From contig MEDY01000108.1 of assembly GCA_001724265.1 (NCBI GenBank), positions 1 to 64,000 on the forward strand: 64,000 nt of DNA, in the 5' to 3' direction. Of this stretch, positions 4,428 through 63,000 are shown piece after piece (the first letter of the stretch is position 1; every line of letters starts with the position of its first letter). This stretch comes from Rhizaria sp. SCN 62-66 (Eukaryota). Below the pieces are notes generated by a model. That model was given only the letters and a program-made list of their open reading frames with translations, was not told the DNA's origin and searched no databases. A program made the translations under genes and the position numbers.

Positions 4428-4500
4428 TGTAGCTTGGGGGCATTGATCCCCCTGCCCCGCGCATGCTAAGCGCATACTCTACCATCTGAGCTAAAGCCAC
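4428..4500 (-). tRNA. tRNA-Ala(AGC), copy 1
   Basis: GTGGCTT/AAGCTAC acceptor with G3:U70, anticodon arm TGCGC-TT AGC AT-GCGCG, ATCAATG T-loop with A54 as in eukaryotic tRNA-Ala(AGC). Confidence 0.92.
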
Positions 4501-4561
4501 TGACTACATGTTGTACTTGCGCAACTTGCTTACACATTGAGGTAGCGAACAAAAAAAAGAA

Positions 4562-4634
4562 AGCCACCGGCGGGGCTCGAACCCGCGGCTAATCGGTTAA
4601 GAGCCGAACACTCTACCGACTGAGTTACGACGGC
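4562..4634 (-). tRNA. tRNA-Lys(CTT)
   Basis: GCCGTCG/CGGTGGC acceptor, anticodon loop CT CTT AA, GGTTCGAGC T-loop. Confidence 0.92.
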
Positions 4635-7203: not shown

Positions 7204-7275
7204 TGTACTAGCCGGGGTTTGAACCCGGGGCCTTTCCGTTGCGAACGGAACACTCTACCACTGAGCCACTAGCAC
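7204..7275 (-). tRNA. tRNA-Ala(CGC), copy 2
   Basis: Gene body identical to 4281-4352. Confidence 0.93.
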
Positions 7276-7331
7276 AGTTGTTGGTGCTTACGTTAGATCG
7301 AACTTGGGAGCAAAACACCAAAAAAGAAGTG

Positions 7332-7404
7332 TGTAGCTTGGGGGCATTGATCCCCCTGCCCCGCGCATGCTAAGCGCATACTCTACCATCTGAGCTAAAG
7401 CCAC
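7332..7404 (-). tRNA. tRNA-Ala(AGC), copy 2
   Basis: Gene body identical to 4428-4500. Confidence 0.92.
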
Positions 7405-24941: not shown

Positions 24942-25883
24942 CTCTCGCGCGCGGAGTCGTCAGAGCCACAGCGGATGAGACTGCAAAGCACACAAATGAG
25001 AGAGAGAAAGGGAGGTTGTGAGAGCTTCTTAAGGTTTGCCCCTCCGCCGTTATTCGGATATAACGGAAGGAAAACGAGGTGGCTACGAATATCAAGCGTG
25101 ACATGAAATATAATAAAGTATAATGTAAACAGTAAGCAAAATGGCAGTTGCTATAGAAACCGTTATTGGGGGAGAATAAGTGGGATAGAGAGACGGTTGG
25201 AAGAGATGTTGCGAGGACGAGTACGGTTTCTCTCAGACAAGATTTCACCAGAGAAATCGTATTGATAGAAAAAGTGATTAAAAATTAACAAAGAAAAGCC
25301 ATGTAATTATTGCTATGTCTGAGAGATTAGCCACTATCGGAGGTTTCACGGCATAATTTGATCCCGCAGAGTGGCATCAAGGCGCACGACAACACCTACG
25401 TCGCTGCCGAACCAACAGGAAATATTGACTGGCCACAGTTGCAACCTCCCATTCAGACCAACATTTCACATCATTAACGCAGTTATAGAAGGACCAGTTG
25501 CCAGTGCTTCCTGTTCGCGCTTTGATTCTATGCGAATACATTGCTTTCTGAGCCATTTTATCTTTTTGTGAGGCTGTATCTGCGAGAACAACACTGCCTG
25601 TCGAAGTGACTGTGGGCGGTCAGCCCGCCTGACCTTGACTCGACCATCTCAAATCCAAACTTCTAACCCGCGCCATCCCCTTCGTCCAGCTTTCTGCTCG
25701 CAAACATCCCCCACTTTTTGCGTTGCGATATCATTACACACTAAATTACACTCGCTCAAAGCCACATCTTGCGTGCCAACTGTCTCCTTCCTGCGCCCAC
25801 CTCATTGCCGAAACCAATCTAAGGTCAGAACCCTTTCGCGCGCGAACAAACCCTTTCCGCCGTGTTCTGTTCCGCGATCCGAA

Positions 25884-28800
25884 ATGGCCACGTGCGTTCA
25901 CGCGAACGAGGTCAACGCGCCCCGCGCCGACTCTCTCGTACATAAGGACGAATGCTGCCAGTGCTTCGTCACCCCCAAGACGGCGGGCACGAACGGCCTC
26001 GGCGTCTGCCTGACGTGCTTCACTGGCGGCTGCGCGGGTCCCCAGCCCTCAGCGGCCTCCGTCGCCGACGCCGCCGTTACCGCCAGCGCGGGCTACGCGA
26101 CGGGTCACGCCGCGCGGCACTTCGCGGTCACCAAGCACCATGTCTACCTCTTCCACAAGCAGACTCAGGACGACTCAGCTGCCGCCAACTCTGCGAATAC
26201 GGTCACAGAACTCGCGGCCCTCGCGTCCGCGGAGCCCCCCGTGGTGGACACATACACGGCGCACTGCTTCACATGTGCGCTTGATCTTTCGCTGGATGCG
26301 GCTGTGAACCCGAAGCTCGCTGCCGCTGCGAATGCCATTAAGTCAGCCACTCCCGCCTCGGCCCCCGCTCCCACCACGTACGTCGCTCCACTTATCAAAA
26401 CATCACATTTGACGACATATATCGATACATAGGCGTGCAAAACTAAACAAATATGTTTATATAGATGATGATTTTATTATGATGTTAATTTTGACTCAGT
26501 TAAAGCTTATCTTCACCGTTTTTTTCAAATGTATTTTTGTTTTTTCGCATCTACAGTGACTTCTTCGGCGGGTCTGCCGAGCCCCCCGCGGCACCCTGCG
26601 AGCACACCCTGCTGCTCCCGGCGCTGCAGCAGTCCCAGGGCACGCTGCCCGACCTGTCGAACGCCAAGCTTGCCAAGTGCACTGATTGCGACCTGTGTCA
26701 GAACCTGTGGCTGTGTCTGACGTGCGGCAACCTCGGCTGCTCCCGGTATGTTTTCTCAATATTAACAACAAAGATAGCATACGATGTTTTTAAATCTGCA
26801 CCCTAAGATGTTTTGATATTATTTGTACTGTTTTGTTTAGTTTTGCTTTGAAATACGGTTATCTCTGTGGTCTATGTGTCTCTTTTGTGGCTTTGCCAAG
26901 AAACTAAAGTAACTAAACGAGCACTTGAACAACCAAGATCTTCACCTATTAATCTAAAACTAAATCACAACACCACAGTTACCATCTAACACATGATACT
27001 AATATTCTATTCAAATTTACATTTATTTCGCTGCGTATATTCATATATAGCCGCGACTACGACGGCTCCGGCGGCAACAACCACGCTGTCGACCACGCCA
27101 AATCCACCGGCCACTGTCTCGTCCTCAAGGCCGGCACCCTGTCCCCCGAGGGCACCGGCGACATCTGGTGCTACGACTGCGACAGCGCCGTCAAGGATGA
27201 CCAGCTCGAGGCGACGCTTGCGGCCTTCGGGATTTTGCTGAGTCAGCAGTCCAAGACGAGCAAGTCCATGGCCGAGGTTGCGATGGAGCGCAACTTGACC
27301 GCAACCTTCCAGTCCGTCCACGACCCTACGGGCAAAGAGCTCTCGCTGCTGTTCGGACCCGCGCTCACGGGCGTCGTCAACATCGGCAACTCGTGCTACA
27401 TGTCCTCCGTCGTGCAAAGTCTCGCCGCGTGTGGCAGCGTGCGCGCCCGCTACGGCGGACTCGCGGGGCTGGAACACCTGACCACGTGTCGCAACCAGCG
27501 CCCCGGCGCCTGCTATCTCTGCCAGCTTGCCAAGGTGTTTGTCGGGCTCGGAAGCGGCGTGTTTGCGCTGCCGCCCACAAGTGAAGCCGCTGCGGCTTAC
27601 ATTAAGGCTCAGCGCGCTACCCGTGATAAGTCTATTCACTGCAAGAGCGATGCCAACGCTGACGCTGCAGCTGCTGCGAATGGTAACGCGAACGATGATA
27701 GCTTTGTGGTCAGTGAGCCTGCTGCTAAGGTCTCCCGCCTCGCCACCGACACCGATGACAACATCAGTAGCGATCCTAACACGAGCCTCACTGGCTCTAC
27801 CAACGCTCCTGCGGCTGCTGCTGCTGTAGCAAGCAGTCACCCGGTGGTTGTGCAGCCTGGCGTCTCGCTGCGCGCCCTCAAGAAACTCTTCAGCGCGGGC
27901 AACGGCGACTTCTCGGGCAACGCGCAGCAGTGTGCGTACGAGTATCTGTGCCACGTCAAGGACAACATCACGCGCAGCTAGACCGCGCTCAAGGACCGCG
28001 GGTCGAACCCCATAGAGAGCTTCCTTTTTGCGACGTCGTCGCGTCTGCAGTGCCGCCAGTGCCGCGGGGTGCGGTACACCACTAGCAAGGCCAGCGACAT
28101 CGTGCTGCCGCTAAGTCAAGCCGCCATCGACCGTGAGCAGCAGCAGCTGCAGAACAGCAAGGACGCTGCGACGGCGACCAGTGCCCCCTCCTTGGATGTG
28201 AGTTTCGAGGAGTGCATGGCGACTTACGCGGACACGCAGTCGGTCGAGGGTTTCAATTGCTCCAAGTGCCTCACCAAAACCACGTCGGATGTATGTACCG
28301 GTCTAAGTACCCTGCCCGAGACGCTGGTGGTGCAGGTGAAGCGGTTTGGTCTTTTCAACTCGCAGTCATGGGTTCCCACGAAACTCATGACGAACATCAC
28401 CTTCAACGGCTGTGGTGGTCACGGGAACGGTCAGATGATGACTGACACCGATGCAGCCGTGGCTGCGGGCGCGACGCGCGCGAGCGGACTGGTGGACTGC
28501 GAGGGCTTTGTTCCCCCCGTCATCGATTTGGCGGCTTACATTCAGAGCGGCATCAAGGACGGCGAGGAGCTCCTGCCCGAGAGCAACGATTGCGCCGCCA
28601 ATAGTAAGCAGGCGGGGGGCCTGGCGGCGAAGATGGCTGCGGTCAGCGCAGACACGGTCGAGATGATCTGCGGCTTTACTGGTACGTTCAGTTCCTCTTT
28701 AAGATACTACTTTTGAATGCATATATAAAAGTGTAGCCTGCCTTGCTTTCGTCTCCCATCCATTGCATCCCGATATATTTTTCATGATTCTCTTGTTTCT

Positions 28801-29324
28801 CTTGCGTTTTTCTGTGCGCACCCCTAGGCATGGACGGCGACCGCGTGCGGTATGCACTCGTGCAGTGCGACAACGACGCCGACCGCGCCGCCGAGTGGCT
28901 TTTCTCCCATATGGATGATGTGATCAGCTACGACGATGGCAACGACTCTGCCGCCACCGTCGCTGGTGCTGCTGCTGGCGGTCCAAGTGCCTCTGGGGGT
29001 GCGCTGGGGTCGACTAAGTACCGCCTGCGGTCATTCATCTGCCACGAGGGGCGCTCGACGCTCAGCGGCCACTACGTCTGCTACAAGACGGCCACGGCCA
29101 CCACAAACAGCTTCAGCACCAACGTCAACGCTAACAACGCTCAGGACGCGGCAAGCTACGGCACGTATGCACTGAATTCGCACGCGAGTGACGAGGCGAC
29201 GGGCGCCGTGGCCGTTCCTGACGGCACCAAGCTTGGCTGGGTCTGTTTCAACGACCAGAAGGTGTTTCAGGCGGCGACCGCGCCGGTCGGCCAGGCGTAC
29301 ATCTACTTCTTCGAGCGCGTGTAA
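25884..29324 (+). CDS. USP5: Ubiquitin-specific protease USP5/USP13/Ubp14 (isopeptidase T). Exons 25884-26377, 26557-26745, 27051-28681, 28828-29324; one in-frame TAG at 27979-27981
   Basis: N-terminal ZnF (HKDECCQCF), ZnF-UBP (NLWLCLTCGNLGCSR..GGNNHAVDH..DIWCYDCD), Cys box GVVNIGNSCYMSSVVQ, UBA (ALVQCDNDADRAAEWLFSHMDD), His box ICHEGRSTLSGHYVCY, WVCFNDQKV. Ends TAA. Confidence 0.93.
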
Positions 29325-29507
29325 AGAGGGAAGGATATATCGGCGGTGTGTCCGTCTGTGTTGATGAATTTGTGGTGGCAGCGGAGTTCCATTGTTTATG
29401 TACTTTCATATGTTATTATATTGTGAATACAGTTTATCTTGATGCTCGTTGTCTCACTTTGTATTCTTCCTTTCGCTCATGTGGTTGCTGACATCAGCTA
29501 CCTCTAA

Positions 29508-30043
29508 ATGTACGTTCAAGCTTTACGTTAATCGCGCTCCATATCGATGTCAGCGGAGCTTATCTTAACTCACTAGGTTGATTCTCTTTTTCATTGCCTT
29601 ATAGGGCTGCTGCGGCTGGCAAGGTGTCGTTCAAGATCATTCTTGCGTCTGACCCCAAGCTCCCTTACAAGATGTACGTTCTACTCAAATCTTTCGGGAC
29701 AATCATAATCTCGATTTAACCAAGTTTCCTGTAATATTCACACTTCCAAGTTTGCGGAGCATCTTCTCATGTACTTTTATTTCTATAAATTCTGATCTTT
29801 GTGCTCAAATTCTCTTGTTTGTTTACCACCTCGAACAGCGTGAGCGTGCCCGACCAGGCCCCCTTCGCGGCCGTCGTCAAGTTCGCCGCGCAGCAGTTCT
29901 CCGTTCCTTCCGACACGTCCGCGATCATCACTCCCGACGGCGTGGGCGTGAGCACGAACCAGACTGCGCAGGAGGTATTTATGTCTTATGGCAGCGAGCT
30001 ACGGCTCATTCCGCGTGACCGCGTCGGCTCCGATGAGATCTGA
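29508..30043 (+). CDS. UFM1: Ubiquitin-fold modifier 1. Exons 29508-29509, 29605-29673, 29839-30043
   Basis: Spliced product [73 protein letters not shown]. Ends TGA. Confidence 0.96.
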
Positions 30044-30389
30044 ATCCACTACTTTTCTGAACAAAGAAGCACCTGTGTGTGATAGAAACGTCGAAATATA
30101 GTCTTGCAAGTGTGGTTACATGTTTTGATTTGATCTTGTATCATTCGAGTCAATTTTTATCCGCTCTAGTGTTTCAACTCAGACATCTAAACGTGGGCTT
30201 TAACGGCCAACATACGTGTTCTCTAGAATAAAACCCTTGTTTATTATCTGTTTTAAGTATTAATTATCGTATATATCAGTCTAAATATCGTTATTGTTCA
30301 TCTTCCATCTTTAACCGAAAAGACTCACAAATTTCATTGTGAAGTTGGGACTTAGCCACAATCAAGAATACGTTGCTGCAGCGAAATGC

Positions 30390-33300
30390 TCACTTGCCAT
30401 GCTTAAGCGCAGTCATCCGCTCCAGATTGCGCACGAGCGCGTCTAGATAGACTTCCTCCGCGGCCGCAGCAGTGCGCGACAGGAGAGGATCGCTCTCCTC
30501 GGCGAGAAGTAAAGCCGCCTCGTAGTCTGAGTACTCCCTTACATTTGCGGCGGCGCTACTCCCCGCAGCAGCAGCGTGGAGCTCTTGACTCGCGTTCTGT
30601 TGGGCGCGTGCGATGGGGTACTTAGACGGCGATGTAAGGTGCTGCTGGTTATGCGTACTTACGAACCTAGCGTTCCCATGACTGTGGCCGTGGCCGTGGC
30701 CGTGGCCGTCTTTGTTCGGTGTCAGGGTGACTGTGAGGCCCTTGGACGCGTAAGAACCAGCGTTACCATTTAGACGCGCGGCGCTAGCGTGGTTATGATG
30801 GTCATCGTTCACATCTAAGGGGTCGTTATAGTCGTCGATGTAAGTACTGAACGACTCGCGGCGCGCACGGTGCCCCTTAGATCCGATGATGCCGCCTTCG
30901 CTCGCACTTGCGCGGGGCTTGACACTTACATTCGCGGCAGTATTGACACCACGCTTAACCGTGTTGGTGGCGTTGACACGAGCAGCATTACCACTTACAT
31001 TCCTCGCAGCAGCAGTACTTGCATGAGCACTGCTAGGACGAGCGCTGACCGACTTGCTGCGACTGCTGTTGTTATCGATGTTAGTATTGTTGTAAGTGTT
31101 GCTGTGCGTGTTGATGCGGGCAGTGCTGGGCCCGGTGACGCCCTTAGGGACTGCAGCTGCGCCCTGAGACGGCTGCTGCTGCTGTCGTTGTTGCTGAGTA
31201 ACAACAACAGAAGATAAAGCCGGGACTACAAGTTTGCGGGACACACCACGAGCACTCGCACTAGCATTAGCATGAGCATTAGTATGAGCGTTATTACCGC
31301 GACCACTTGCCCCACGACTGTTCGCAGTCGTGCGAGAATGAGCGTTGGCGTTGTTGTTGGGAATGAGGCCGTACATATCGCTCTCCGCCTTGATAGCCCG
31401 CTGCAACAGCACTGCTAAAGCCTTGAACGCGCTCTCACCGTCGCCGCCGCCACTTACACTGCGTTGAGGCGTACTTACACCCTTCGCTGTCTTCACAGCG
31501 CCAGACGCAGCCGAGGTACCGACACCAGGCTTATTCTGTGATGTTTGCTGCGGCTGAGGGGCGCTTAGATTGCCTTCCCAGCGTGACAGCCGGCTCGCAA
31601 GCTTCTGCTTGAGGGTACTGAGCGCGACGGACCGCGGCGGCATCGGTGTGAGGGTCCTCTCCTGCTCGCGGTCACTGCCTTCACGATACCACAACAGTCC
31701 GAACAACTCGTCCGGCACAATGCTGTCGCGCACTTCAGTGAAGTTGTAGCCGACGCGCCGGATGCGGCCTGAGTTCTTGAGGTGCGCGAGCGACTCTAAA
31801 GTTAAGCCGTCCTTGCACAGGAGGTCGAGAACGGGCATGAGTAGGCCGCCACCGCGCGGGCCGTACGGAGGGGCGGAAGTTAAGCCGCACTGATCTTCCA
31901 GTAAACGCGTATTACCCGCGCTGGAACTGAGGCTAGAGCGACCGAGACCACAACGCGAGCTTGACACAGTGAAAGCAGAGCCAGAACTGGAGCCAGTGTT
32001 AGATCCAGAGCTAAAACCGTGATTGTTGTTGCTGTTAGAAGCGTATTGGCGGCAGCAGCAGAGAGAAAGCAAAGAAAGACGTGCCTTCTCGCGGCGTTGG
32101 TGCATCACGATGTGGTGGAGCACCTTAGCCCGCCTAAGTACCTCCTTGTCCTCGGCCTTGTGTCTAAGTACCCGCGCGCGGCGGGTAAGTAAGCGGCGCA
32201 TGCGGGGACACTTACACTCCTCGGGGTAAGTGTCTGCAGAGTCTGTGTCAGCATGTGAACCATGTGTTCCTTTGTTATAACTGTTATAAGCGAGGGAACA
32301 AATGAGTGTGAGGTCCTTGCTGTCAGCCGGAATACCTTCTAACGCACACTGCTCACAGTCACCTGTCGCAGCCTGCTCGTGGGCAGCATGCTCACAGCCA
32401 CTGATGTCGACGGCGTCGTCACAGTCGTCGTTGTCGCTGTAAATGTCGTCGGCATCGTCGTCGTCGTCGTCGTCGTCTTCATCGTCACTCTGGTAGCTGA
32501 CACAGTCATACTCAGAATCACCAAAAAGGACTGAGAAAACGCTCCTAGTGTACGCATTCTTGCTCTTTTTAGCGTTGTTGCGACTGTCTACAGCAGCGAC
32601 CTGTGACTGAGCCGTGCGTAGATGTGAGAACGGACATTCGTCGAAGTGCGGCCTATGTAAAAGCGCCTGCTCAAGCTGGCCCCAAACAACGTTGTCACTC
32701 ACAATACTCGCAGTGTTGTTCGTGCTAGCAGCAATGTGAGTCATGCTCTGGCCGTCGATGCTTTCATTGGAGCTGCTAGGAAGTGAAAGAGCGGCAGCTT
32801 CAGCCTCAGTGATGCCGTAAACGACAAAACCGTCTCTTTCGTGAGCGTAATCATCCGCGTTTTTGTTCTGGAAATAGCTTCGAGACGCGATCAACCGGCG
32901 GGACTTCGTCAGCATTCGCTTCATTTGACCGTGGTCACTGCTCCACACATGCAGCAGCCCCCCTCCACTTACAGCGGAGGCGCTTACACCAGCACCAGCT
33001 CCCGCGCCAGTTCCAGGTTTAGCCGCCCCATAGGTACTTAGACTCGACGGCGACGCGTACAGTGCGAGGATCTTTGTCGCGCGCAGCGGCGCAAAGGGGT
33101 CAAGCTCACTCAGCAAACTGTCAGTGTAAGTGGCCAAGGTGCCGGCCACGGCCCCAGGCACGTCGTCAAGCTTCAGTGAGAGTAAGGTAGTGTTTGCGGA
33201 GAGCAACGTGACTGCCGCGTCAACGGCGGCCGCGTCTGCGCCGTTGTTGCGGATGTCAAGCGCCAACAACCACTGGTCGGCAGTGAGAGTGGTGAGCAAG

Positions 33301-35951
33301 TTGGCCAACCCGGCGTCTCCGAGTGCGTTGTGCGATAAATCCAGCGAAAGCAGGCCTTGCGATGACAACACACGAGTCAGCGCCGCGTCAGCTTGCTCGG
33401 AAGCGCTCTTCTGCTGCTGCTGAGCTGCGCTGCCGCTCGCGCCGCTACCCTTAGGCGGCGAGGAAGTCGTAAGAACCCCCTTAGAGGAAGTCGTAAGGAC
33501 CCCCTTAGAATTGCGCAGCGAAGCCCTCCAGCGGTACTCCTCCCTACGCTGCGCCTGTGCCTCGAGGAAGCGGCTTAACATAAAGACGCACTGGGGGCCC
33601 AGGTTGCACTCACTAAAGGCCACATGGTTGACTGAGAGAGTCGCAAGCGCGTCCAGCAGCAACTGCAGCGTGGCCAAAGTTAGGCCGCCGCAGCGGCGGA
33701 GGTAAAAGACCCTGAGGTTGACGGTGTGCTTGAGGTACTTAGCTAGGGAGGTCCACGCCGCGGTTGTAAGGGTCACGGAGCGAAGCTCTAAGTGGCGCAG
33801 TGTAAGGGGGTGCGTGCCGAGCACACGTGGGACTAAGTGGCAGACGGCGACGGAGCGCTCACGGTCACTTAGATCGTCGGGACTGCCGCCTTTAGTCAGG
33901 GAAGTGCTGAGATTACCGGCAGGCTTATTCTGACTAGCGCTGTTGTTGTTGTAGCTCTCGTTGTTGTTGCCGCCAGTGAGCGCGGGATCCAAGGGGCTGG
34001 CGGTACTTAGACGAAAAACAGTGAGTCCAGGCAGCTTAAGCGCGGCAAGAGTCAGCACTTCAAGCATAGGGCGGCTTAACTTTGACACATCCGCAATCCA
34101 CTGGTGGTGCGACAGGTACCGGAAAAAGACCGTGTTGCGAATCTTGGTGTACAGCCTGTGCTGCGCGATGCCTGCGTCAGTCAAAGCTGAGAGGAAGTTA
34201 AGCCGCGGCTTGAGATCGGAACGCGTGCGGGACGAGTCACCGGTGACTGCAGAGGTACTCAGCCTGCTGTTGTTGTTGCTTTTGTTTGTGATGTTATTTT
34301 TAGACGGGGGCGTGGTGTTAGTGAGCTCAGCATATGCCTTGAGGATCAAAGCACGTGTTTTGTCATCGTTGACTGAAACGCCACCAGTCGCACTGCCGCT
34401 GTTGGTAAATAGCAAAGCGTCTAGAACAGCCTTGATGTCGTTGTTTGCCTTGCTAGCGCCAGTGCTATTGTTGTTGGCAGTACTGACATCGGAGAGTGAC
34501 GTGATCGGCTTGGGAGGGTAGAAAGTGGGTGTAAGTACGCCGGACGCGGCCTGACTTTTGCTAGACTTGATGCCGGAAGCTTGGCTTCCACCAGTGCGAG
34601 CCTTTTCACGGGCAATAATGGCAGCAGTAGCGGCCTTAGCATCGGCCTTGGCCTTGGCCTCAGCAGCCTCAGCCTCAGCCTGTAGTCGAGACAAACACAA
34701 AATGACAAATTTGGCAAAGAATGCAAATGTACAGATGAGCTGGGTTTTAAAAACACCATAAAAACAGCCAATAATCCAATAAATATTTAGTTTTACACTA
34801 AAAATAGTGAAAAAGGAACATGAATATTGTTAAAATGCACTTTACTAGTTACAACATACTTCTCCGGGCCTCATCGTGAGGGCCGTTTTGATCACAAGCG
34901 GCCTCGCTTGGACCGGCCGCTCCTGGCCCACAATGCCGCAGCCGGGGTTGTTGTAGCTGGACCCACCGGCACTTGCGCTACTGGTGTTGTTGTTGTAGTA
35001 CGCGGCAAATGTGCTGGGACCGAACGCGTTGTGAAACGCGATATCCTCAGCGGTAGTTCCGAAAAACTCCCCTGCGCCCGCCTGCTCGCAGTCGCCGTGC
35101 GCTGTATACAGCCGCATCTGGTGGTCAATCGTAGCCATGGCGGTGATCGCGGCTAGCCGCCGCTGCTGGCGTTGTTTGCGGCGCTGCTCGCGCTGTTTAA
35201 CCCGTAAATGCAGCTGCGAGTAGTCGATGTGGTACTTAGACAGCACGCGCGCCGCGTGCGCCTGCTCGCGGGTAAGGACCCCGGCGCCGTCGGAAGTTAG
35301 GCCGCCGTCACCTCCGCCCTTAGAGATGCTGGCAGAGGGCAGGGGCAGGTGGAGCAGCTTGGCGAGAGAGTCTAAGCACCACTCAGAGCTCCCCGCCTCT
35401 TCATTATGACTGCTATTACTGTCGCCGTCAGCGGCGTTGTCGCCGGTGAGGCTGCTGGTAGCGCGGTTCTTGTTGGCTGCAGCAGTAGCAGCGCTGATGT
35501 TTGAGGTGGATTTGGTCTTGTTGTTGTGGTTGAGCAAGTGTGAGGCTTGAGTGAGATCACGGGTCAGACCTTCGTCCTCAGTCTCGTCTCCATTGCCCTG
35601 CCCATTCCCGCCACCGGCAGCAGTCGACGCGTTGTTGTCGCTGCAAACGGCGGCAGCAAAGGGCGACACCTGCTGCGCGTACGCCGGCGGAGCGCAGTAG
35701 GGCGCTGTGGGGCCGTAGATGGCCGTGGCAGCGGCGGCGCCAGTGTTCCACACAGCCCTGGCCACAGCGTTCACAGTCGGGGGCTTGTGCTCGGTCTGTT
35801 TCGCGGGGTAGTCGCCGCTGGGCACAAACGGGGTGTCGGCCGCGGTGGAAAAAAGCCCCGGGGTAGTAGCAAAGGTCGCGCGGGACCCAGGGTGCGGCGC
35901 GGGGGGCTGCGAGTGCCAGGCGGCGAGCGCGGGCGGTGGGAGCGAGGTCAT
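30390..35951 (-). CDS. CEP78: CEP78-like centriolar LRR protein. Exons ~35951-34860 and 34679-30390; true start uncertain
   Basis: LRR block VAFSECNLG..QAQRREEYRWRASLR..GLLSLDLSHNALGDAG..ADQWLLALDIRNNG..NTTLLSL matches the remembered CEP78 signature (RRHEETWAESLR..EDLWLRALDL..NTTL). Ends TGA. Confidence 0.75.
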
Positions 35952-36322: not shown

Positions 36323-39300
36323 TTAATGCCGCGCATGCGGAGGAAGAGGAGGCAGCGGTATCGTAGGCCGTTTAAGCACAGACACTGGTTGTGAGCCCTG
36401 CTGCGGTGAGACTGGACGTGAACCAAGTGCCTTAGTGTCAGGCGTTTGTGAGCTCCTGCTCGTGAATCCATGAGCTTGCTGCCGCGACAGCCGCGGCTGA
36501 TGCGACTGCTGCGGCTGACCTGACTGCTGTTGCTGTTGTAGTTTCGAGACTTCATGATGCTGATGCTGCTGCAACTGCTGCTGCTAATCGTACGTGCTAC
36601 AATTGCGCTGAGCTTGCTGCTTTAGCAAGATTGAAGATGATGTTAACACCTTGCTGCAGTGTGAGATCGCATCGTTCGACTGTGAAAGCGGAATCAAAGA
36701 CGATGATGACTGTAGCGATGCGCAAAATTGCGAATCAACGTTAGCCGCGTTGTGAATAACTGTGCTACTCACACCAGTGCTCAAATTATTGTTGTTTGCG
36801 TCTAAATTGATGCTATCAGTGCTTTGTGTAGCGTTGGTGCGTGTGTGGGCGCTCTGGGGAATGATCGGCAGCAAGTATGAGTCGAAAGGCAGCGTCTCGT
36901 TGCAATCAAACGTGGCACTGTTTAGTTGTGCACTTGCATCGTCAAAATGCACGCATTTATCCTTCGCGGCACCACTGTTAGTTGCCGAGCTAACGTGGTT
37001 GTTGTTATTGCTGACGTTAGTGTGGTTATGATCAGTAGTTGCAATGATTTTCTGGCCGTTAGCAGTGCTACAATGTGCTTTGCTGTGAGCTGCGTTGTCG
37101 TCGCCGCTCGCAATGTCATTAACAATGTTTTCGCTGTCTTCGTCGTCGCCACTAAAGTTAGCATCATCGCTATTGCAATCGCTCCCGTTTTCACCGACGC
37201 TGCTCTCATCATCACAGGCGCTGTCAACGCCATCATCATGAGCAACCGTGTGGGTGATTTTGTTGTCGTTTCTGCTAACTCTAGTCGTATCACTCGCGGC
37301 TTTGTTCTCAGGAGCAGTTGTACTGGCTGCGAAGTAGTTGCTGCAAATGATGTGACTATAATGCTGGACAGAGTCAACGCTGGCTGTGCTCGAATCGCAC
37401 TGCATACCTGGGGCAAGTTGATTGTTAACGCTATTGCTTGCCTTTAAGACGCTATCTGTGATAAGGTCGAAACTCAAACTCGAATCACTAATTTCTCTCG
37501 TATCAAACGTGCTACGAGTTACTGCGTTCGCCGCAACTAAAGTCGGAAACAATTTGCTCGCTTGCTGTTGTTGCTGCTGCTGTTGCATATGCTCTTGTTG
37601 TTGATGCAGTTGCTGACACCTATGTTTCTGCTCACAGTCACGTTGCTGCTGCTGTGTATCCTCAAGTTGCCGCTGCAACTTTGGCTGCTATCCTGATTGT
37701 GATCGCAAGTTTGCTTGTGCATGCATGTACGCGTGCGACTTTGAGTTACAGGCAGGCGGTTTCACAACTTGTTGGTACTTGGACTCCGTCACACGATCGA
37801 ACACCGAACTTTCGCAAGCACTGGCATCGGGTTTTGTGATATTACTCTTTGTCTCTCTCTCTTTCACTGACGACAACGCTACTGCTACTTGTGTTGATGT
37901 AGCTGGCGCTGTGGCTGTTGCTGTTGCTGTAGCTGTTGATGCAACTGATGCAAGAGGCTTAGACGTGCGAAGCTCACTGGCGCCTGTAAGCCCCACCTTA
38001 GCCAGCAACGGTGTCGCTACCTTAAGCTGATATGTAAGTATCTCTTGCATTAAATCAGGCCGCCCCCTTAGCCTCTCTTGTGCCCTCGCCCACAGCTACG
38101 GCACTGCCCGCAACGCTTTTTTGATGTCAAGCCGCTTCTGCGGCAGCTTCTCGAGCATGCCACTAACAACGCCCCTGAGTCGCTCTGAGTACCCTGGATG
38201 TAAAGGTCGCGGCTTGCCTTTGATTATCTTGATTGCAAGCGCAGGCAGCGATGCGGCACGGAAAGGGCGCTTTAACTGCAAGATCTCGTATGCAATTACG
38301 CCCAGTGCCCAAACGTCTGATGGGAAAGAGTATGGCTGCCCCTTGATGACCTCTGGCGACAAGTAGTACGGAGTGCCAATGCGAGTCAGGGCCAGTGCGG
38401 CTGTCGCTGCGAGCGGGCGAGATACGCCGAAATCACCGATCAACAAAGTCAAGCCGCTCTGCGATATGACGGAGTCACCCTGCTGCAAAACTGAGTCGCC
38501 ATCGGGAGCGGCTGTATCTGGACTCTTGTGACAGGAGCACGTGCAGCCGTTGCTGTTGTTGTCGTTACGTGTGTCACTGTTAGCGCTCTTGTTGTGCTCA
38601 CACTGTGGAACCTTTGCAACGTCCTCCGTCTCAATCGTGATTTTAGCGGCATTGGCAATGCTGTTATTGTCACTATGATCATAGCTTGCAAGAGTCTCTG
38701 GACGGATAGGGTTTGGGGTTAGAGTTTCGTTCGAAGTTAGATGCGGCAAGTGTACCACCGACGAAAAAACAGCTTGCCTGTGGTCAGCAGAAACGCTGCT
38801 GCTGTGAGTGGCTTGACTTTGAGGTAGATCGTAGTAACTCGGACCAGCGGTTGCATCGAACGTGTCCGCGACAGAAGTGTGTGAGTTATTATGTTGACCG
38901 ATGTTAATGCTGCTTGTATCGGCAGTGCTGGTGGCTGGCGGCAGCGACCACTGCTTGCGTCGACGAACAGTCAACTGCGGTGCCGGCGACTGTGATTGCA
39001 ATTGGGACTGCAACTGCTGGTGTGACTGCGGAAGCGTTGGCAACGGTGACATTAATGGCAGTGCATGCGATGACAATGATGGCGCTGCAAGCTTAGGTGC
39101 TGTTGTTGAAGCTGCCGCTGCTGTTGGCGCTGCTCCAAGCTCTATCTGATCAACACTTGTGCGTTGTGGTTGCGGCAGCTGCTGCTGCTTTTGCTTTGTG
39201 CAGCCACACTTGGAGCAACTTACAGCGACTAACTGCACATCGTTGGGTGGCTGTGACTGGGACTGCAACTTAGACACGCAATCAGCACCCGCCAGGCTGG

Positions 39301-40765
39301 AGCTGCTGCGGCTGCATGCGGCTGCATTACCGGTTGCGTGAGCTAGCATATTGTTGTGCAAGAAGACATTGCTTGTCTTCAAGTCACGGTGCAAGATCTT
39401 GCGGTTGTGAATGTGGACAACACCGAGCATTAACTGGCAGATAATATCCCAGCAAACAGTCTCCGGAAAGTAGTAGCCCGGTAAGACCGCAGCAGTGTGC
39501 CGCTCTGTGTTTGCAACCGTGTTATTAGAGCAGTTAGAGCTATTTCCGTCGATGTTGAATGTTGGCAGCCCACTTGCGCTCACGCTTGCACTGGCCGTCG
39601 CACTTTCAAGGACGTCTTTTCTGCAGCTGAGCCGCTCATCGCTTGTCTCCCGCTGCTGCTTTGTCTTGGCCGCTTGCGCCTTAGCTAGCTTCCTTCTCTC
39701 AACTTGTTGTGCAATCATTGAAGTTAAGTCGCCACCGTTACAGTACTGCATCACAATGGCTAATGCTCCCTCGACTGTAATGAAGCTGTCTAAGTAGCCC
39801 ACAACATTTGGGTGTCCCCTGATAGCGGCGGCATTTCCACCCGCTGTTGGTGTACTGTTAGTTGTGTGGAAGCTACCGGATCTCTTGTTGCTGCACGCAA
39901 CGAATGATGATACTTCGCGCAAAATCGCGATAAAGTCACTGTTCAACTCGTCTTCGTCTTCGTAACGTGCGCGCTCACTCTCAACGTAGCAAGCGTGGCT
40001 AATGGCTCCATCGGTGTTGTTGTCTATGCTATTACCATTCGCGCTTGGGTTCGGAGGAGAATTAACATGTGATGCCTTTTCAGCGCAGCGAGTCAGCATG
40101 TCTTCCTGTACTAGCGCTCCTCCGCCTTTTGTTGGCATATATGCGCCCTTCGTTTTGTACGGCACTTGGATTAGCTTTATCACGACTAATCCATCGTTGG
40201 CGTCGCCCGCAGCATCGTGACTGTGAGCACGCTGCTGCGGCGGACCGTGCTCATGCAGCGCAGCATTATTTGAGGCTGCAGAGTCCTTGGAAGACTCTGC
40301 ATCTTTCCACTTGCTCTGGTAGGGCTTGCTACTAACACCACTTAGATCAGATGTCGTTACACTTGAGTCAGAGGTACTGAGGTTTCTCTCGAGGGAGATG
40401 CCTGTGATGGTGCTGCCAGGTCCAATCAGCATACCAGAGCTGAAGCTAAGCCACTGCTGCGCTTGCTGCAGCTGCTTGTAGTGTTGCTGTTGTTGCTGTG
40501 AGTGGGAAAGCAATTGCGCAGGTGCAGCAGAATCAGCGCGAGTTGGAGTCGCTCCAGTAAAGGTTGCATGGGCCGCAATTGCAGCGATCTCTGCAGCGCT
40601 CTTATCGCTGCTCGGTGCATTCGTTGAAAACGGTGGCAGCGTTAACGGGGGTGTAATATAGTTTTGTAAAGGTGTTGGCGACTCAAGAGGGAATGGACGG
40701 CATAGAACTGCGCATCCGTACGACCCTTTGCCTATCACGCGAAGCGCCACGTAGCGGTGCAACAT
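36323..40765 (-). CDS. NEK/NIMA-family Ser/Thr kinase, a single exon of about 1480 aa if the three in-frame TAGs (38096-98, 37688-90, 36584-86) are read as sense
   Basis: IGKGSYG, VIK, HPNVVGYLDSF, IVMQYCNGGDL, HRDLKTSNVFL, IGDFGVSR, IGTPYYLSPE, SDVWALG. Four consecutive ORF-track segments share one frame and are separated only by TAG. Final stop is TAA. Confidence 0.88.
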
Positions 40766-41410
40766 TGCGACGCCCTCCTCACAACTACCTCGAGAGATGA
40801 TTATGTTTAGGTTTCAGTATTGATAGACTTGTTTGAATAGGTCTTTTAGTGGGCTGACCATGGAAGTTTGAAATAATGGAGATATAGCGTATTTTGTGAG
40901 AAATGAGTGCCACGTCGACAGTCCCCGTGAACCCGCTTACAAAATCAAATTAACGCAGCGCTAAACAGATGATCATAAAATAAGCTTGCATTTTTTAGAT
41001 GTTGGCCATTTTTTTAAATACTGATGATATTGTTTTGTTCCTAAAATCAACGTGATAGCTGATACATAGATGTAAATCGATGTTCAAGTCAGCCTCCCTG
41101 AGTGGCCAATGAGTGACTGTGGGCACTCTGACTGCCTGGCCAAGAGTCGGGAGCACTCATGATGTAGGAAATTACTTGGATTGCGTCTTCTTTTGCGGGG
41201 AATGATCTGTTGATTGCATATTTATTTATTCGGACATACCTCGCTTTCTCTCGTTGACTCAATTTCTTCCTGCACTGAAGATTGAATTCCTTGCAAGCAA
41301 GGCCGCTCCAACTCACCGACCTTGGCCCTCTCGTTCCGCTTTTTTTGCCTTCCCTCTTTCGCTCGTGCGCAAATTCTTCTTGCGGTCATATAAACTCAAA
41401 CGTTGAGCAG

Positions 41411-45978: not shown

Positions 45979-47317
45979 ATGTTCCCTCTCACTCTTGCTT
46001 TGCTCTCCCGGATAAATGACGACTCCAGTCGGCCAAAATAGGCGACAAGCACGTGCACCTCTGCTAACACCAACTCTAAAGTCACCCCCTGCCATGTCGA
46101 CCTACCTTAGAGGCTTAACTTCGATAAAGTCAAGTCGCGCCGTCATGGTTTGGCGCGTGTCTCTGGGCTTGGCAACTCGTTTCTGATCCTCGATGTAAGT
46201 GCGAAGGAGTGTAAGTGTGTCTGCACGTGTACGGGTAAGGGACTTCGCAGTGGCTCTGACCTCAAGTGCACGTGCGAGTGTGAGTGTGGCTACGTGCCTT
46301 TGCCACGCTTGTACTCACTCGCAACACGCTCGAACAATTGCAAAAACAACAGCAACGGCACGAGCACTTCTGATGCAACAGCTGGGATCTCCTCTAGTGA
46401 CAACTCGAACCCTTTGCCATTGTTCCCCCCTCTCAGCACTGCTTACATCTCTGAACTGTGCTTAAGTGCCGGGACTGATGGCTTCATTGCCATCATGCCA
46501 GAGACTCTGCTCACAGTGAATTGCAATAGCAGCACCATCAATAACAATAATAACACCAAGAACAGCAACAGCACCAGCACCAGCACCGGCATTGCTGACA
46601 GCACTTACACTGCTTCTCCAAGCCACAGTGCTCCGATGGATCTAAGTACCCCTGCCTCGGACACTTACATCTTCCGTCTGTGCAACAACGATGGCTCTGA
46701 CGCTGAGATGTGTGGCAACGCGGTGCGCTGTGCAGCCGCCTACTTAGCTAGTTTAAGGGGATTGTCGTCGACGGCATCTTCACAGCAGCAGCAGCAGCAG
46801 TCTGCGCAAAACGCCCCCTGGCCTTGGCGGCTTGACTTTGATACCGCCGCAGGTGTCAAGCAGTGCCTCATCAAGAAGCCGCCACTGTCGTTTTTGTCGT
46901 CCTCCCATAATACGGAGACGGGGGACGTGGAGTGGGAAGTGGCTGTGGGCATGGGCAAGCCGTCTCTGTCATCGTCTCAGTACCCTCTTAGCGCAGGACC
47001 TTCTCCGGTGACATTGAGGTATTACACACCTCTTAGCCCAACACACCTCCTTACAATGCCGTCTAAGGGCGTTGATCAATGTGACCCTCAGCGCGTTCCT
47101 GTTATCGCCACTGCAGTCCTACCTCTACCTCTTACTGTCTGCCCCTTAGGCAAAGCCGGCACGCCGGTCCCTCCGCCGCCGCTGCCCCCTTATCTGTCTA
47201 AGTTCCCCTTTTCAGACGCGCCGCAGTTCGAGAGCGTAGGTATGTTCTTCAAGGCGTGTATTGTCGACACAGGTGTGCCCCACTGTGTGATCTTCTTTCC
47301 CCCCGCCTTCAAGAACC

Positions 47318-56377: not shown

Positions 56378-59300
56378 TTGTAATCAAACCAAACAAACAC
56401 GAACGAGAAATAAAAGCAATTTAAAGAGAGAAACGCAATTAAGGGAGAGAAAAAACAATTAATGGGAGTAATAACATAAAAGGCAGCAGAGGAGATGCAA
56501 AGAAAGGGGAAAAGCATTGGGAGCAATACAAAATGGGGAGAAAAGCACAGGGAGAAGAAGAAGAAAGACAAAAAGCGCAGTTGTTAAATGTGAGAGTAAA
56601 TGTTTGTTTGTTGTTTTTCGAGATAAGCACGCATCCATTGACATAAAGCCATGTAAAGTTATACATCGTGTGCAACAGATTGAGATGATTTTAGAGCAGC
56701 AGATGCTGATATAACAAACACACAACTCAAAGTGTCAATTACGCTGCTCGATAGTAGTTGCAATTAGTCACCAAATATAAACGAAACGAAATAAACACGG
56801 ATCAAAGTTCTCAGCTGAACCAGTATAAACAAAGCAAACACTGTCACTCACCAAGTTTGATTAACGTAAACAAAGCTAAACAAAACCGCAACGCTAAATA
56901 AAGCGAAGCTAAGCAAAGCTAAGAGAAGTTCCGATATTCAAAGAGAGCTCGTATACTATGACATCTCTCTCTGAAGTATTAATAGTGCAGGAATGGCAGA
57001 CGTACCTAGACTGGAGGGATCAGACGCAGTTGCGATAAAGCGGTGAATCAACGGATGTGACGCCACCCAAAGCCCCCTCTGCTGCCCATGGTCATTCTTC
57101 AGCTGCTCACGGTCACTCTGCTCACCACTGCGAGGATGATTGTGCACATCGAAGGGGCGGCTTACTTTACTGTCAGAAAGCCAGAGGTTATCAGCAGCAC
57201 CATCAATCGCCACTGTAGCCACCGCTTTCGTCCCCACCTTGTACTCATAATACCTCACCTGCTTATTCTTATTCTTCTTCTTACCGACAGCGTCGTCCGC
57301 AGTCGCCGTGTAAGTGTCCTCAGTGTGAGTGTCATTGGTGTAAGGGTGCGCAGTGCAAGTGTAAGGGTATGCGGCTAAACTTCGGTCCTGCGTGGAAGCC
57401 ACCCAGATTCGTTTCGCTGCCTTATCAATAATGACGCCATTGGGCTGAGACAGGCCCTCCACCACTAATGAGCACTCAGTACCCATGAGTGCGTTCTCCT
57501 TTTTGTTGTTGTTCTTGTTGTTATTGCGGTTACTCGTGGGTGTAGCACCCGTGAGTGAACAGAGGGCAAGGGAGCCCCAACGACGAAATGAAGCCATTTC
57601 GAACAGAGTGCCAGGGCCGTCTGCGGCAGGGGTGTTTAAGAAGTTACTATTGATGTTGTTGTTGTTGTTGTTGTTGTTGTTGAGAAAGAGGAAAAGAAGG
57701 AAACAGCGAGAGATAAAAGAATCAACAGTAAAAAGACGTGAGAGTGAGTGGGTCAAGTTAGAGGTGGTAAGATTGCGCACGTGCTCATAGCTGCACACAT
57801 GCTTACGAGTTGTTTCGATGTACAAGAGCGTCATATCCACAGAAAAATAAATCGACTTATATCAACAAAACACGTGGAGTACATCGAATCATGCGTTTCT
57901 TGTGATATCACACTACAAAGCAAACATGTTTAAAGCAAACACGTATGCATTCATCAAGCCAATCACATCAAAGCACTCACATCCAAAGCATTGACTCCGT
58001 AGCGTCTTATCAAAACATGTGTAAAAGAATTGCCTCCGTAGCATCACTTCAAAGCGTGTGAGAAACATTGACTCTGTCACAGTCGCAGTGACAGCTTCGT
58101 CAAAGCATAACCAACAACTTGCAAAGCACAAGAGTATCTTATACAGGCGGCAACCAAAGCTTCTTGTTTTCTCCGACCGATACTTTTGAATAATTAAAGA
58201 GTCAAAACAGCACACTTATAACAACAAATAATTAGCATATATAACATCAATAATGAAGCAAGCGTGGTAATATGTGAGTAACTAAGCAAACGTACGTCGC
58301 CACAAAGGTATCCCTATCGAGAAATGCAACCCCGTTAAGATTCCTCAGTTGTTTGGGATGTGATTGGGCATCTGCCACTGCAACTAGCCTCAAAGCCAGA
58401 GATGGTAAAAGATCGGTTACGTTTGCACGTAGTTGGCTCACAGTTACAACACTCTCACTCTCATCGAAGCGATGACTACCATCACCGTCGCTTTTGTTGT
58501 CACCGTCGCTGTTGCTGTTGCTGTTGTTGTTGTTGGTCTCGTTGTCCCTGTTGCTTGTCGTAGGAGTGGGAGTAATTGAAATGAGGTCAAAAACGGCCAC
58601 TGCAGGCCCTTTCCGAGCCACCAAAACCACAGCAACTCGAATGCCCCCCGCCTCCTTATTATGACTCCTTGTAGTTTCACCACCATTATCACCATCACTA
58701 TTGTCGTTGCCGTCATCTTGTGATGACGGTGTTGATGATGTTGACGTTGATTCATCAGTTACTGAGAGTGTGAAACCTAAGGGTTGAAAGTCAGGCCGCG
58801 TTTCAAAGTCCCAACCCCTTAGAGGCAGTGCTCGAAACAAGCCGCCCCCCTTAGATACATCACCCTTAAACTCATTCGACGCGCCCTACTTAGACGCATC
58901 CCCCTTAGACGCAGCCAACGCGTTTGCAGCGAGCTTGTTGGCAGCTTCAATAGCAACATCGTTTGCAATTGCGACTAAAACTGCCCCTTGGTATTGTTGT
59001 TTCCCTAACATCGCCAGCCTTCCGGCCGAGGTGGAGAGATCAAGCCCTTCCCCCGCCCCCGCCATAGTAGGATCCCCTGCCTCCCTCATAGTCGCGGTGG
59101 CAACCGATTGGTCGCCGAAAGCGCGGCGATAGGGGGCGGAGGCGGCGAACAGCAGAGGACCAGCTAAGCGTAAATCCTCAGCTGCACGCATGAGGGGCGA
59201 AGAGGCGTCGATAGCGACACAGGAGGACGCTGATGATGCCGATGCTGGTGCAAGGGCGCTGTCGATATAGGGCCGGAGAGCGACAGAGAGGAGGCAAAGT

Positions 59301-60027: not shown

Positions 60028-63000
60028 ATGCGTCCCTCAGGCTCAGGCTCAGGCTCTGTCAGTGGCAGCGGTGGCAGTGGCATTCCTATTGCTCCCCCTC
60101 CTACTCCTCTCCCGTACGCTCTATCACTTTTTAACAACATTTATACCAACTTACACCATTATTTTGTGTTATCTCCTGATCATTTGGCTTAGCCACAACG
60201 TATTATCTCTTTGAAACCCTGTTTCGTCAACCACAATCATCCCTCATCGTTTTCGTTTCTCCTATCTTTACTCTTTGATACCTTCCTCCCTTTTAGCCCC
60301 GCTGCATTGCTCTCCAAGCTCCGCGCAATTCCGGCCGTTTCGCAAGCGTCCCTTACCCCTCAAGCCGTTACCGACCTCAAATGGGGGTTTGTCGAGCCTA
60401 CCTTAGCTGCTTTAGCAAGGGCTTCTGGATCAACAGCTATTGATGATCTAGTTGAATCACGTCGTAAAGAAAGGGCGTTTGAACGGGCATCTCCTCTGGG
60501 ACCGAACAAAGCGCGCGAGGCGGCGTATCAGGTACGCGTACTTCCATGTATACTAATTAGATTCGCACTGTTACTGCACTTACATTCAAACACTCGCTTG
60601 AGATTGAGAAGTCTTGATCTGATTTGCAGATGTGATGCTTGTAGACTATACTTTGCTTTGGCTTGATGAGTCGCTACGATATTCGCTATATATATGAGTT
60701 ATTTACTCACAAAATGCAGTTTTCCTTCAAGATTGATTCATATTCGCTCACATCTTTGCTGTTTCATTCTTGCTTCTCTTGTTTGGTTCATGTTGTTCAC
60801 GACTACCATTTACCTTGCGTTTACATATTGCATATATCTGTCGACACTTTGTGCTGTCACTCTATCTTTTCGCTTTGTATATGTGTCTTAGGCGGCTTGT
60901 CTTAAAACAGCGGCTAATATTGCATCTGTTTCCTTACCCGCCCCCTCACAGTCACAAGCTGTTATAAGCCGCCTTTCTCAAAACTCTCATAACTCTCAAA
61001 ACTCAGCCTCTAATGCTGCTGCTGCTGCTGCTGGTTTGACTGGTGACAAAGGGGGGGTTTCAGTTTCAGTTGTTGCTGTTGAGAAAGTGACTGTAGCATC
61101 GGTTTTGACTGCTTTGGCCGCAAAGGCGGCTTATGTTTCGACAGCGACTGAGAGTATGCCTGGCCAGGGCGTTTCCACCAAACAACAACAACAACAACAA
61201 CAACGCTTGCAACAACAACAACAACAACAACAGCAACAGCAACATCAGCAGCAGCAACAGTCTCAAATGCAGTCACAACTGAAATCTCCACCTCAACCTC
61301 AGCCTCAGCCTCAGCAGCAGCCTCAGCAGCAGCCTCAGCAGCAGCAACAGCAACAGCAACAGATTACAGAGTTGCAGCAGCGTTTGTCGCAATTGCAAGC
61401 TATGGTTGCTCACCAACATCAACCTCAGTCTTTACAACAACAACAACAACTACAACAACAACAGCAGCAGCAATTACAACAGCATCAGCATTTGCAGCAG
61501 CAGCAACAGCAACAACAAAGGGGTATGATTGCAACACCTAGCCGTTTTTCAGCAAGGCCACAGTCACCTATCATCACCCCTGCCTTTGCCGCTGCCCCTT
61601 TTGCCACATCTGACCCTCATGCAGAGTCTATTTCTCATCAATCTCAGTCTGCGAATGCGCAGGGGCGGGGGCCTGGTGCCAGAGTAGAGAGACGGGGGCC
61701 TGCGGGTTTAACAACGGCACAGCTGCAGCGGCCACAATCAGGTCGTGGCCTAGTAAATACTGTTAACAATAATAACACTATCAACAACATCAACAATATC
61801 AGTCCTAGTAACGCTACGAATAACAGCATTGTCAATCCTAGGAGTACGAATCACAATAGTATCGTTTACTCTGATTCTTCGAATGCCGGCTCTGCGAGTG
61901 CTGCTTTCACTGCTAATGCCAACGCTGTTTCTTCCTCCTCCAACGCGACTGCAACTGGGGCTGCCACGGTGACTGATGTTTTCAGCACAGGCCTCGGCCG
62001 CCGCCGACCTGCCCCCGCTACTATGGCGGGGGCGGGGGGCGCTATGGCGGGAGCGGGGGGGTCGTCGTCATCGTCGATGTTGTTGGAGAAGGGAAAAGTA
62101 GGGGCTACGCTGGCAGCTTTGGCTGGAGGGCCTGATGTTGACGATGATGACAACGGTCACGCTGCGCAAAAACAGCAACAACAACAAAAACAGCAGCAGC
62201 AGCAACAACAACAACAGCAGTTTCAACAATAGCAGCAGCAGCGGCGGCCTCAGCAGCCTCGATGGCATCATCCTGATGACGACCACGACGACGATAATGA
62301 TGGCCGCTTTAACGCCGATAACGATGACGTCAACGGTCGTTTCCGTTACCACAGCGCCACTGAGCCCGAGCCGGAGCCAGAGGCTGAGGCTGAGTTTGAG
62401 AATGGAGCTGTGACGGAGGCTGGAGCAGGAGCTGCTTTGAGTAATCACAATTCCCGTGTCAATACTAAAAAAACACCCCTTCCTGGCTCTAGCTCAAACT
62501 CAAAATCTAAACCCAGCAGCAGCAGCAGTAGCGGCGGCGGCGGCGGCAGCGGCGGCGGCGACAAAGGGGGTGATGCTGGTAGTAATAACGGTAGTTTGAT
62601 GGCTACTTTACGCCGGGCTCAGGCCCGAGCTTCAGCTGAATCCTCTCGGGCTGAGAAGGCTGAACGCATTGCCGCCGCCGCACAACGGGAGATAGCTTTA
62701 TTACGACAACAGCTCGAAAGGTCCGAGGCTGCTTCCGCCGCCGCTGCCGCCGCCGCCGAACTTGTTGCTGAAACGGCTGAGGCTGCTGAAGCCGAGGCTG
62801 CTGAGGCGACGAAAGCAGCAACTGCAGTCGCGGCGGCGTCAGCGGGGGCGGGGGCGACTCATGCAGCCTCTCTCTCTCACGCTGCTGCCGTTGGCTATAA
62901 CAATAATAATAACTCTAGCAATGGCACTGCTACTGGGAGTGGTTCTACTGCGTCTGGCTATGATCGTGGCAGCCCTCTCCCTATGCCTCCGCGCAATCGT

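Follow-up and report, generated by a model that had tools for sequence, protein, structure and literature searches.

In-frame TAG codons in a USP5/Ubp14-type gene and in three other genes of an uncultured eukaryote from wastewater metagenomes suggest a nuclear code with UAG as a sense codon

We analysed a stretch of 64,000 nucleotides (positions 1 to 64,000 of contig MEDY01000108.1, assembly GCA_001724265.1; the window hereafter), in which a gene for a deubiquitinase of the USP5/Ubp14 type carries an in-frame TAG at 27979-27981 on the plus strand. The window is nuclear DNA of an uncultured, intron-bearing eukaryote of bioreactor and wastewater metagenomes, in which UAG is probably a sense codon throughout the nuclear genome, with UAA and UGA remaining stops. 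The USP5/Ubp14-type gene would then be an ordinary intact gene, and its codon 538 would be one rare UAG sense codon, at a frequency of about 6 per 11,000 codons. The original prediction had treated this TAG as a site of readthrough. The runs listed as containing the stretch are bioreactor, wastewater and activated-sludge metagenomes, dated 2015 to 2025.

The gene has four exons on the plus strand, with splice junctions taken from RNA contigs, and its coding sequence (CDS) of 936 codons runs from the ATG at 25884 to the TAA at 29322-29324. In the spliced CDS the TAG at codon 538 is the sole internal stop. In the following lines X3 and X4 are DNA runs, X5 is a run whose contigs we took as complementary DNA (cDNA), and A1 is an alignment with seven USP5/Ubp14 homologues.

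25884..26377, plus strand: exon 1, with the ATG at 25884 and the variant zf-UBP domain (Pfam zf-UBP_var, 5.2e-15; junction 26377/26557 in X5 record 17; frame check)
26557..26745, plus strand: exon 2, with the first half of zf-UBP (X5 record 17 joins 26377 to 26557 and 26744/5 to 27050/1, with GT..AG ends)
27051..28681, plus strand: exon 3, with the rest of zf-UBP, the Cys box, the QQC box, the TAG and the start of UBA (Pfam, alignment A1, PDB 3IHP, RNA contigs)
27979..27981, plus strand: in-frame TAG, codon 538 of the spliced CDS (sequence and frame; present in X3, X4 and the spliced X5 contig)
28828..29324, plus strand: exon 4, with UBA, the His box and the stop TAA 29322-29324 (Pfam on P0001; junction 28680/1 to 28827/8 in X5 record 18)

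The three introns of the gene (26378-26556, 26746-27050 and 28682-28827) are AT-rich and 146-305 nucleotides long, with GTAYGT donors and YAG acceptors. Pfam assigned the pieces of the protein to the variant zf-UBP domain (PF17807, 5.2e-15), to zf-UBP (PF02148, 7.9e-10) and to the N-terminal and central parts of UCH (PF00443, 2.5e-18), the last covering residues 139-485 of the read-through open reading frame (ORF) and spanning the TAG. Past the TAG, exon 4 encodes UBA (PF00627, 9.2e-06) and the C-terminal part of UCH with the His box (5.5e-09). The domain order of zf-UBP_var, zf-UBP, USP Cys box, UBA within the USP domain and His box is that of USP5, IsoT and yeast Ubp14; the protein thus combines both zf-UBP types and the USP Cys and His boxes with a UBA inserted in the catalytic domain, as that family does, and its best database matches carry the names USP5/13 or Ubp14. 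It differs from USP5/Ubp14 in having one UBA that scores in Pfam and a long low-complexity insert from the Cys box to the QQC box. The latter box, QQD in USPs, reads QQC here (27934-27942, plus strand); QQCAYEY is also found in the closest relative, P0002, and QQD in the other six aligned homologues. In our judgement the gene is most likely an intact one for a USP5-type deubiquitinase.

The codons around the site are ACG CGC AGC TAG ACC GCG. In the frame of the ORF at 26953-28716 the translation reads QQCAYEYLCHVKDNITRS up to the stop and TALKDRGSNPIESFLFATSSRLQCRQCRGVRYT after it, which reproduces exactly the translation quoted in the original prediction. Collinearity with USP5/Ubp14 across the TAG, also claimed there, holds in the alignment with seven homologues, in which the three rows closest in length are free of gaps. 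The closest homologue, P0002 (45% identity in A1), has the same length at the TAG, as have two others, and human USP5 (3IHP), the sole PDB match of the segment, aligns across it as well. After the TAG the codon-usage score is 0.54 in frame, against -0.69 and -0.38 in the other frames, with a G+C content at third codon positions (GC3) of 0.79. The score of exon 4 is 0.68, and the downstream exons carry the strongest coding signal of the gene (GC3 0.79-0.80). Termination at the TAG would lose the His box and the UBA, as had been predicted, both being mapped downstream by Pfam; because the His box would be removed, the shortened product could not, on sequence grounds, be an active USP.

Independent sequence data contain the same TAG. 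Two DNA contigs that do not stem from the study of the likely source sample carry it, namely X3 record 2 (27832-30672), with 0 differences, and X4 record 9 (26041-29008), with 1 difference, at 28285. The X5 contigs had been labelled 'RNA? (probably DNA)' by the tool, and we took them as cDNA because they contain three exact GT..AG joints; at these joints the depth in X3 and X4 is 0. X5 record 17 is composed of 25820-26377, 26557-26744 and 27050-27759, with introns 1 and 2 removed. X5 record 18, composed of 27816-28680 and 28827-29392, is spliced and differs from the window at 28285 alone. A spliced read excising 27979-27981 was sought as a check on the original prediction, and the opposite was seen, the TAG being kept in this contig. 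A second in-frame TAG, at 37688-37690 in a kinase gene, is covered unchanged by X5 record 20 (37317-37829). At both positions UAG is retained in the mature messenger RNA, neither spliced out nor edited, at the level of the contig consensus, which can hide a minority of edited reads.

Since independent DNA runs and a spliced cDNA contig contain the TAG, it is no error of sequencing, and neither a mini-intron nor, at the consensus level, editing removes it from the message. A 27-nucleotide GT..AG stretch that ends at the TAG, 27955-27981, is in frame and could be taken for a very short intron, but the cDNA contig from which intron 3 has been spliced crosses it without gap or change. It aligns with homologue sequence of conserved length, and it has neither the GTAYGT donor nor the low G+C content of the real introns, in agreement with the earlier claim that the site bears no intron signature. 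With the DNA runs agreeing on the TAG, the probability of an artefact of sequencing or assembly, or of removal at the RNA level by such an intron or by editing, appears negligible.

The difference at 28285 (plus strand) is a T to G change that turns TCG into GCG, Ser into Ala; it occurs in X4, X5 and X7, a polyA RNA run, and is absent from X3. Two haplotypes at this position coexist across studies, and both carry the TAG. Contigs of X7 at 28341-28761 and 34703-34922 reach into intron 3 of the USP5/Ubp14-type gene and across an intron at 34681-34857, respectively, so that this library seems to contain either unspliced transcripts or carried-over DNA. The listed contigs of X7 leave 27979 uncovered, a gap that bears on the TAG in neither direction.

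A young pseudogene, too, can be a gene that is intact but for one stop, and under a standard code the TAG could be a nonsense mutation that leaves a pseudogene or a truncated protein. We consider this extremely unlikely, because the TAG is common to both haplotypes and to samples dated from 2015 to 2025, the gene is transcribed and correctly spliced, and the downstream exons keep the coding signal given above. Moreover, the same pattern, with TAG alone, is seen in other genes of the window. There are six exonic in-frame TAGs in four genes, with first positions at 27979 (USP5), at 38096, 37688 and 36584 (a NEK-type kinase), at 62230 (a polyglutamine, or poly-Q, protein) and at 58886 (an ORF of unknown protein). 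Those outside the USP5/Ubp14-type gene are the following.

38096..38098, minus strand: kinase TAG no. 1, in the NEK-type kinase gene (ORF 36323-40813), 4 codons past the end of the PDB NEK alignments; P0136 ends here
37688..37690, minus strand: kinase TAG no. 2, covered unchanged by X5 record 20; the next 1101 nucleotides are coding in frame (0.43)
36584..36586, minus strand: kinase TAG no. 3, directly before CAG CAG CAG; G+C is exon-like up to the ORF end, TAA 36323-36325, and then drops to 0.26
62230..62232, plus strand: TAG in the poly-Q run CAA CAA TAG CAG CAG CAG; through it, ORFs of 446 and at least 589 codons become one, and the downstream part is coding in frame (0.34)
58886..58888, minus strand: TAG in the ORF 58247-59404 (unknown protein), whose coding score is 0.20 in frame against -0.29 and -0.14

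These six TAGs stand among 10,932 codons and are found in 4 of the 17 coding stretches, one of which has three. The 17 stretches were picked as ORFs free of TAA and TGA, and their zero counts of these two stops are partly due to that construction. A fairer test is the contrast in how ORFs are joined when one of the stops is read through. Of all stop triplets of the window only 24% are TAG, and readthrough of TAG lengthens ORFs of 905, 589, 342, 650 and 653 amino acids to 1496, 1110, 587, 788 and 724, of which the extensions from 650 to 788 and from 653 to 724 pass through intron or leader sequence. In this way segments of 905, 135, 367 and 87 codons are joined into the 1496-codon NEK-type kinase, 446 and 589 codons into at least 1110, and 342 and 244 codons into 587. 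When TAA is read through instead, the largest ORFs of 1479, 905, 872 and 675 amino acids become 1484, 905, 891 and 719, and with either TAA or TGA those of the largest ORFs that grow gain only 5-44 codons. The kinase domain of the NEK-type protein is split by a low-complexity insert of several hundred residues, and a public protein library holds the kinase as an 889-amino-acid fragment, P0136, that ends at TAG no. 1.

TAG was also missing from the small set of gene ends that we called. About 10 ORF ends were judged confident, by a fall in G+C content after the stop and the lack of a splice donor, and they comprise 7-8 TAA, 1-2 TGA and no TAG. TAA is the main terminator despite a GC3 of 0.6-0.8 in coding sequence, and the proteins of the window have long inserts rich in N, Q, S and A. 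An ORF at 56956-57861 seemed to end in TAG, but a GTACGT donor lies upstream, so that this TAG is intronic and was rejected as a terminator. TAA was likewise rejected as a second sense codon; the candidate cluster TAG TAA ... TAA at 34830-34847, whose TAG at 34845 had also seemed to be a terminator, lies inside a GTATGT...CAG intron.

Near-cognate Gln or Tyr transfer RNAs (tRNAs) are known to read through UAG in eukaryotes and their viruses. If the code were standard, programmed or leaky readthrough in particular genes would give a mix of truncated and full-length USP5, and the rarity of in-frame TAG, at six sites, and the lack of a cognate tRNA among the eight tRNA genes of the window would agree with it. 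However, truncated USP5 without the His box is predicted to be inactive, and the product ending at the TAG is not a complete functional protein. Nor is there a readthrough context: the codons following the six TAGs (ACC, CTG, CAG, CAG, CAG and GGC) share no motif, and the 120 nucleotides from the USP5 TAG (27979-28098) fold no better than shuffled sequences (z 0.25), which gives no sign of a stimulating RNA structure. Together with the spread of TAG over 4 of 17 coding stretches, three times in one of them, and its absence from about 10 confident ends, this makes readthrough under a standard code very unlikely. The original prediction was right in that the TAG must be decoded to give a complete USP5-type enzyme and is neither an intron nor an artefact. 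Its picture of a readthrough site did not hold, with five more exonic TAGs in three other genes and large ORFs joined by TAG only. Because several genes contain TAG, only TAG joins ORFs, confident ends lack it and a readthrough context is missing, we take the pattern as that of a variant code, with TAG read as sense genome-wide, rather than as programmed readthrough confined to a single gene.

Some of our observations weigh against this reading of UAG as a sense codon. Homology on both sides of the TAG is found at one site alone among the six, that in USP5. The 405 nucleotides between kinase TAGs no. 1 and no. 2 (37691-38095, minus strand) are open in frame and have a non-coding score of -0.25, against 0.12 in another frame; low complexity of the sequence or an intron that was missed might account for this. 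The terminal stops are few and their count depends on gene ends that we called ourselves, and the status of X5 as cDNA depends on its splice joints, contrary to the label of the tool. Lastly, no tRNA(CUA) is present among the eight tRNA genes of the window, which are Ser-AGA, Ala-CGC (twice), Ala-AGC (twice), Lys-CUU, Gly-GCC and an intron-bearing Arg-UCU.

One tRNA gene that was found by Rfam only (53579-53710, plus strand; 50.5 bits, missed by ARAGORN) was considered as a suppressor and rejected, being Arg(UCU) with a 59-nucleotide intron after position 37 and not CUA. The pair of Ala(CGC) and Ala(AGC) is duplicated, at 4281-4634 and 7203-7404 on the minus strand, with Rfam scores of 66.8 and 48.5 bits in both copies. 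Lys(CUU) and Ser(AGA) lie near the duplicated pair, and the whole forms a small tRNA cluster with local duplication.

Other TAGs of the window were examined as well. Those at 34845, 56956, 60892, 11061 and 20348 are intron ends or lie inside introns. When the local coding score was used to screen the 88 TAGs that have 50 or more open codons on both sides, 20104, 21547 and 46108 were flagged; the first two of these lie antisense to genes on the minus strand. Among 87 additional ORFs that carry TAG outside the known genes, Pfam recognised only an exon of a Na/Ca exchanger and one with an EF-hand; in both the TAG is the end of an intron, and no further informative site was gained. The flagged TAG at 46108-46110 lies in a region (45980-46140, plus strand) of interest for a diaminopimelate-epimerase gene (PF01678, 3.4e-20), in which there is no in-frame ATG from this TAG to the conserved N-terminal GLGNxF motif. 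The nearest in-frame ATG is at about 45980, upstream of two TAGs (46039 and 46108). Both may be further sense TAGs, within a leader peptide; alternatively, 46108 may mark the acceptor of an intron.

If UAG has been reassigned, we believe with moderate confidence that it means Gln, which would make the code equal to NCBI table 15. One TAG stands within CAA CAA TAG CAG CAG CAG (62230) and another directly before CAG CAG CAG (36584). There are 79 positions of window ORFs where at least five of six flanking residues are Q, and 62 of them have Q at the centre and 4 have L. The column of the USP5 alignment at the TAG contains E, E, Q, E, S, H, H and, in the human protein, C, and no hydrophobic residue in the 8 homologues. 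On the same premise, another residue such as Glu, Ser or Tyr is doubtful, and Leu is slightly more so.

The kinase, however, argues against Gln. Its TAG no. 1, located shortly after the kinase domain, comes directly after a conserved Pro. Of the NEK set of 138 homologues from a representative library, 121 have a residue in this column. In 95 of these it is hydrophobic (F, I, L, V, M, Y or W), and L is found in 14 and Q in 2 of the 121; among the 98 rows whose column just before holds P, L occurs 14 times and Q once. The poly-Q contexts, too, would be expected to some extent whatever TAG means, as poly-Q tracts are places where CAG-to-TAG changes arise and are tolerated.

We also weighed the same code change, with UAA and UGA as stops, but with Leu as the residue, as in the uncultured rhizarian exLh. 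Apart from the hydrophobic NEK column, it agrees with the 4 of 79 Q runs of window proteins that are interrupted by L. In the only rhizarian known to have altered its nuclear code, UAG stands for Leu (PMC5304391), and in a kinesin-13 tree the window falls with Rhizaria (Shimodaira-Hasegawa-like approximate likelihood ratio test, SH-aLRT, 97). TAA dominates the gene ends here, as UAA does in exLh (PMC5304391). On the other hand, the poly-Q contexts favour Q far over L, and the USP5 column lacks hydrophobic residues. TAG is very rare here (6 in 10,932 codons), as against 384 in 71 genes of exLh (PMC5304391). The NEK alignment is gappy just past the kinase domain, where our sequence may carry an insertion of one residue, and the lineage comes from a single-gene tree. 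Taken as a whole, a reassignment to Leu is improbable.

In that tree, the window and six relatives group with Spongospora, Plasmodiophora and Amorphochlora, all Rhizaria. The tree was made by a quick method from a single gene, with 31 rows that we chose from 120 listed hits, and it suggests an affinity that should be taken as a lead and not as a placement. The best matches of USP5 and PMI are mostly from fungi and metagenome proteins and are taxonomically uninformative, as was a protein atlas. A scan of metagenomes with an exact 46-base pattern from the 3' end of the window found 0 stretches, and a kinesin-based metagenome search for related loci gave 108 pattern stretches, none of which was confirmed by tblastn.

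NCBI table 15, with UAG as Gln and UAA and UGA as stops, is used by Iotanema spirale, Protocruzia tuzeti and some phyllopharyngean ciliates. Codes in which both UAA and UAG (UAR) mean Gln, NCBI table 6, occur in many ciliates, hexamitid diplomonads, Streblomastix, ulvophytes and Amoeboaphelidium protococcarum. The window resembles the latter in that a stop codon is read, probably, as Gln, and differs in that TAA is the terminator, at 7-8 of about 10 confident ends, and joins no ORFs when read through. Because TAA terminates here, the UAR = Gln organisms, including Amoeboaphelidium, do not fit. The likeness to table 15 systems would lie in UAG alone as sense, UAA as the main terminator and UAG as a minor codon. 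By its visible traits, however, namely spliceosomal introns of 146-305 nucleotides, exons rich in G+C and the grouping of its kinesin-13 with Rhizaria, the organism is neither a ciliate nor a fornicate. UAG would make up about 1% of the Gln codons here, if it is Gln, compared to about 8% in I. spirale (PMC5304391).

Reassignment of UAG alone in nuclear genomes has been described for exLh (Leu) and I. spirale (Gln) (PMC5304391), and for Scotinosphaera (Ser), Protocruzia and several phyllopharyngean ciliates (Gln, Leu) (PMC11687900). In exLh, a member of the Sainouroidea, gene ends are UAA in 56 cases and UGA in 15 (PMC5304391). The window organism would share with it the UAG-only reassignment and gene ends of UAA or UGA; one of its TAGs falls in a hydrophobic column, and the two may belong to the same supergroup if the kinesin-13 tree is right. 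They differ in the heavy use of UAG in exLh, in the contexts, which lean to Gln here, and in origin, exLh being from an insect (PMC5304391) and the window organism from wastewater and bioreactor metagenomes. A search of the literature from 2018 on for a cercozoan with reassigned UAG gave no paper, and one on stop codons and eukaryotic metagenome-assembled genomes from activated sludge gave, among the matches listed, none on a eukaryote of this type.

By analogy with other UAG-only codes, UAG would be decoded by a dedicated tRNA with the anticodon CUA, and its recognition by eRF1 would be weakened. The UAG-only codes described so far give the basis for expecting these two changes (PMC5304391). 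Pfam scans found no eRF1 gene in the window.

UAG-only reassignment in a nuclear genome is already known as a kind, and any novelty here would lie in the lineage and in how seldom the codon is used. It is possible, and we put it forward tentatively, that an unrecognised protist lineage common in wastewater reactors, perhaps a filosan cercozoan, has given UAG alone to Gln independently of the rhizarian case with Leu, and is at a very early stage of capture, in which UAG has gone from gene ends and makes up about 1% of Gln codons. If this is true, Rhizaria would contain two different meanings of UAG, and the first spread of a stop codon that has become free could be studied in a natural system. 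Few nuclear codes give UAG and UAA different meanings, and an uncultured, intron-rich case that is not a ciliate would be an independent data point on stop-codon capture, with the rarity of UAG as its unusual trait. Gene callers that use the standard code cut proteins at TAG, as in the 889 amino acids of P0136, and metagenome catalogues would thus annotate this organism and its relatives in a systematically wrong way.

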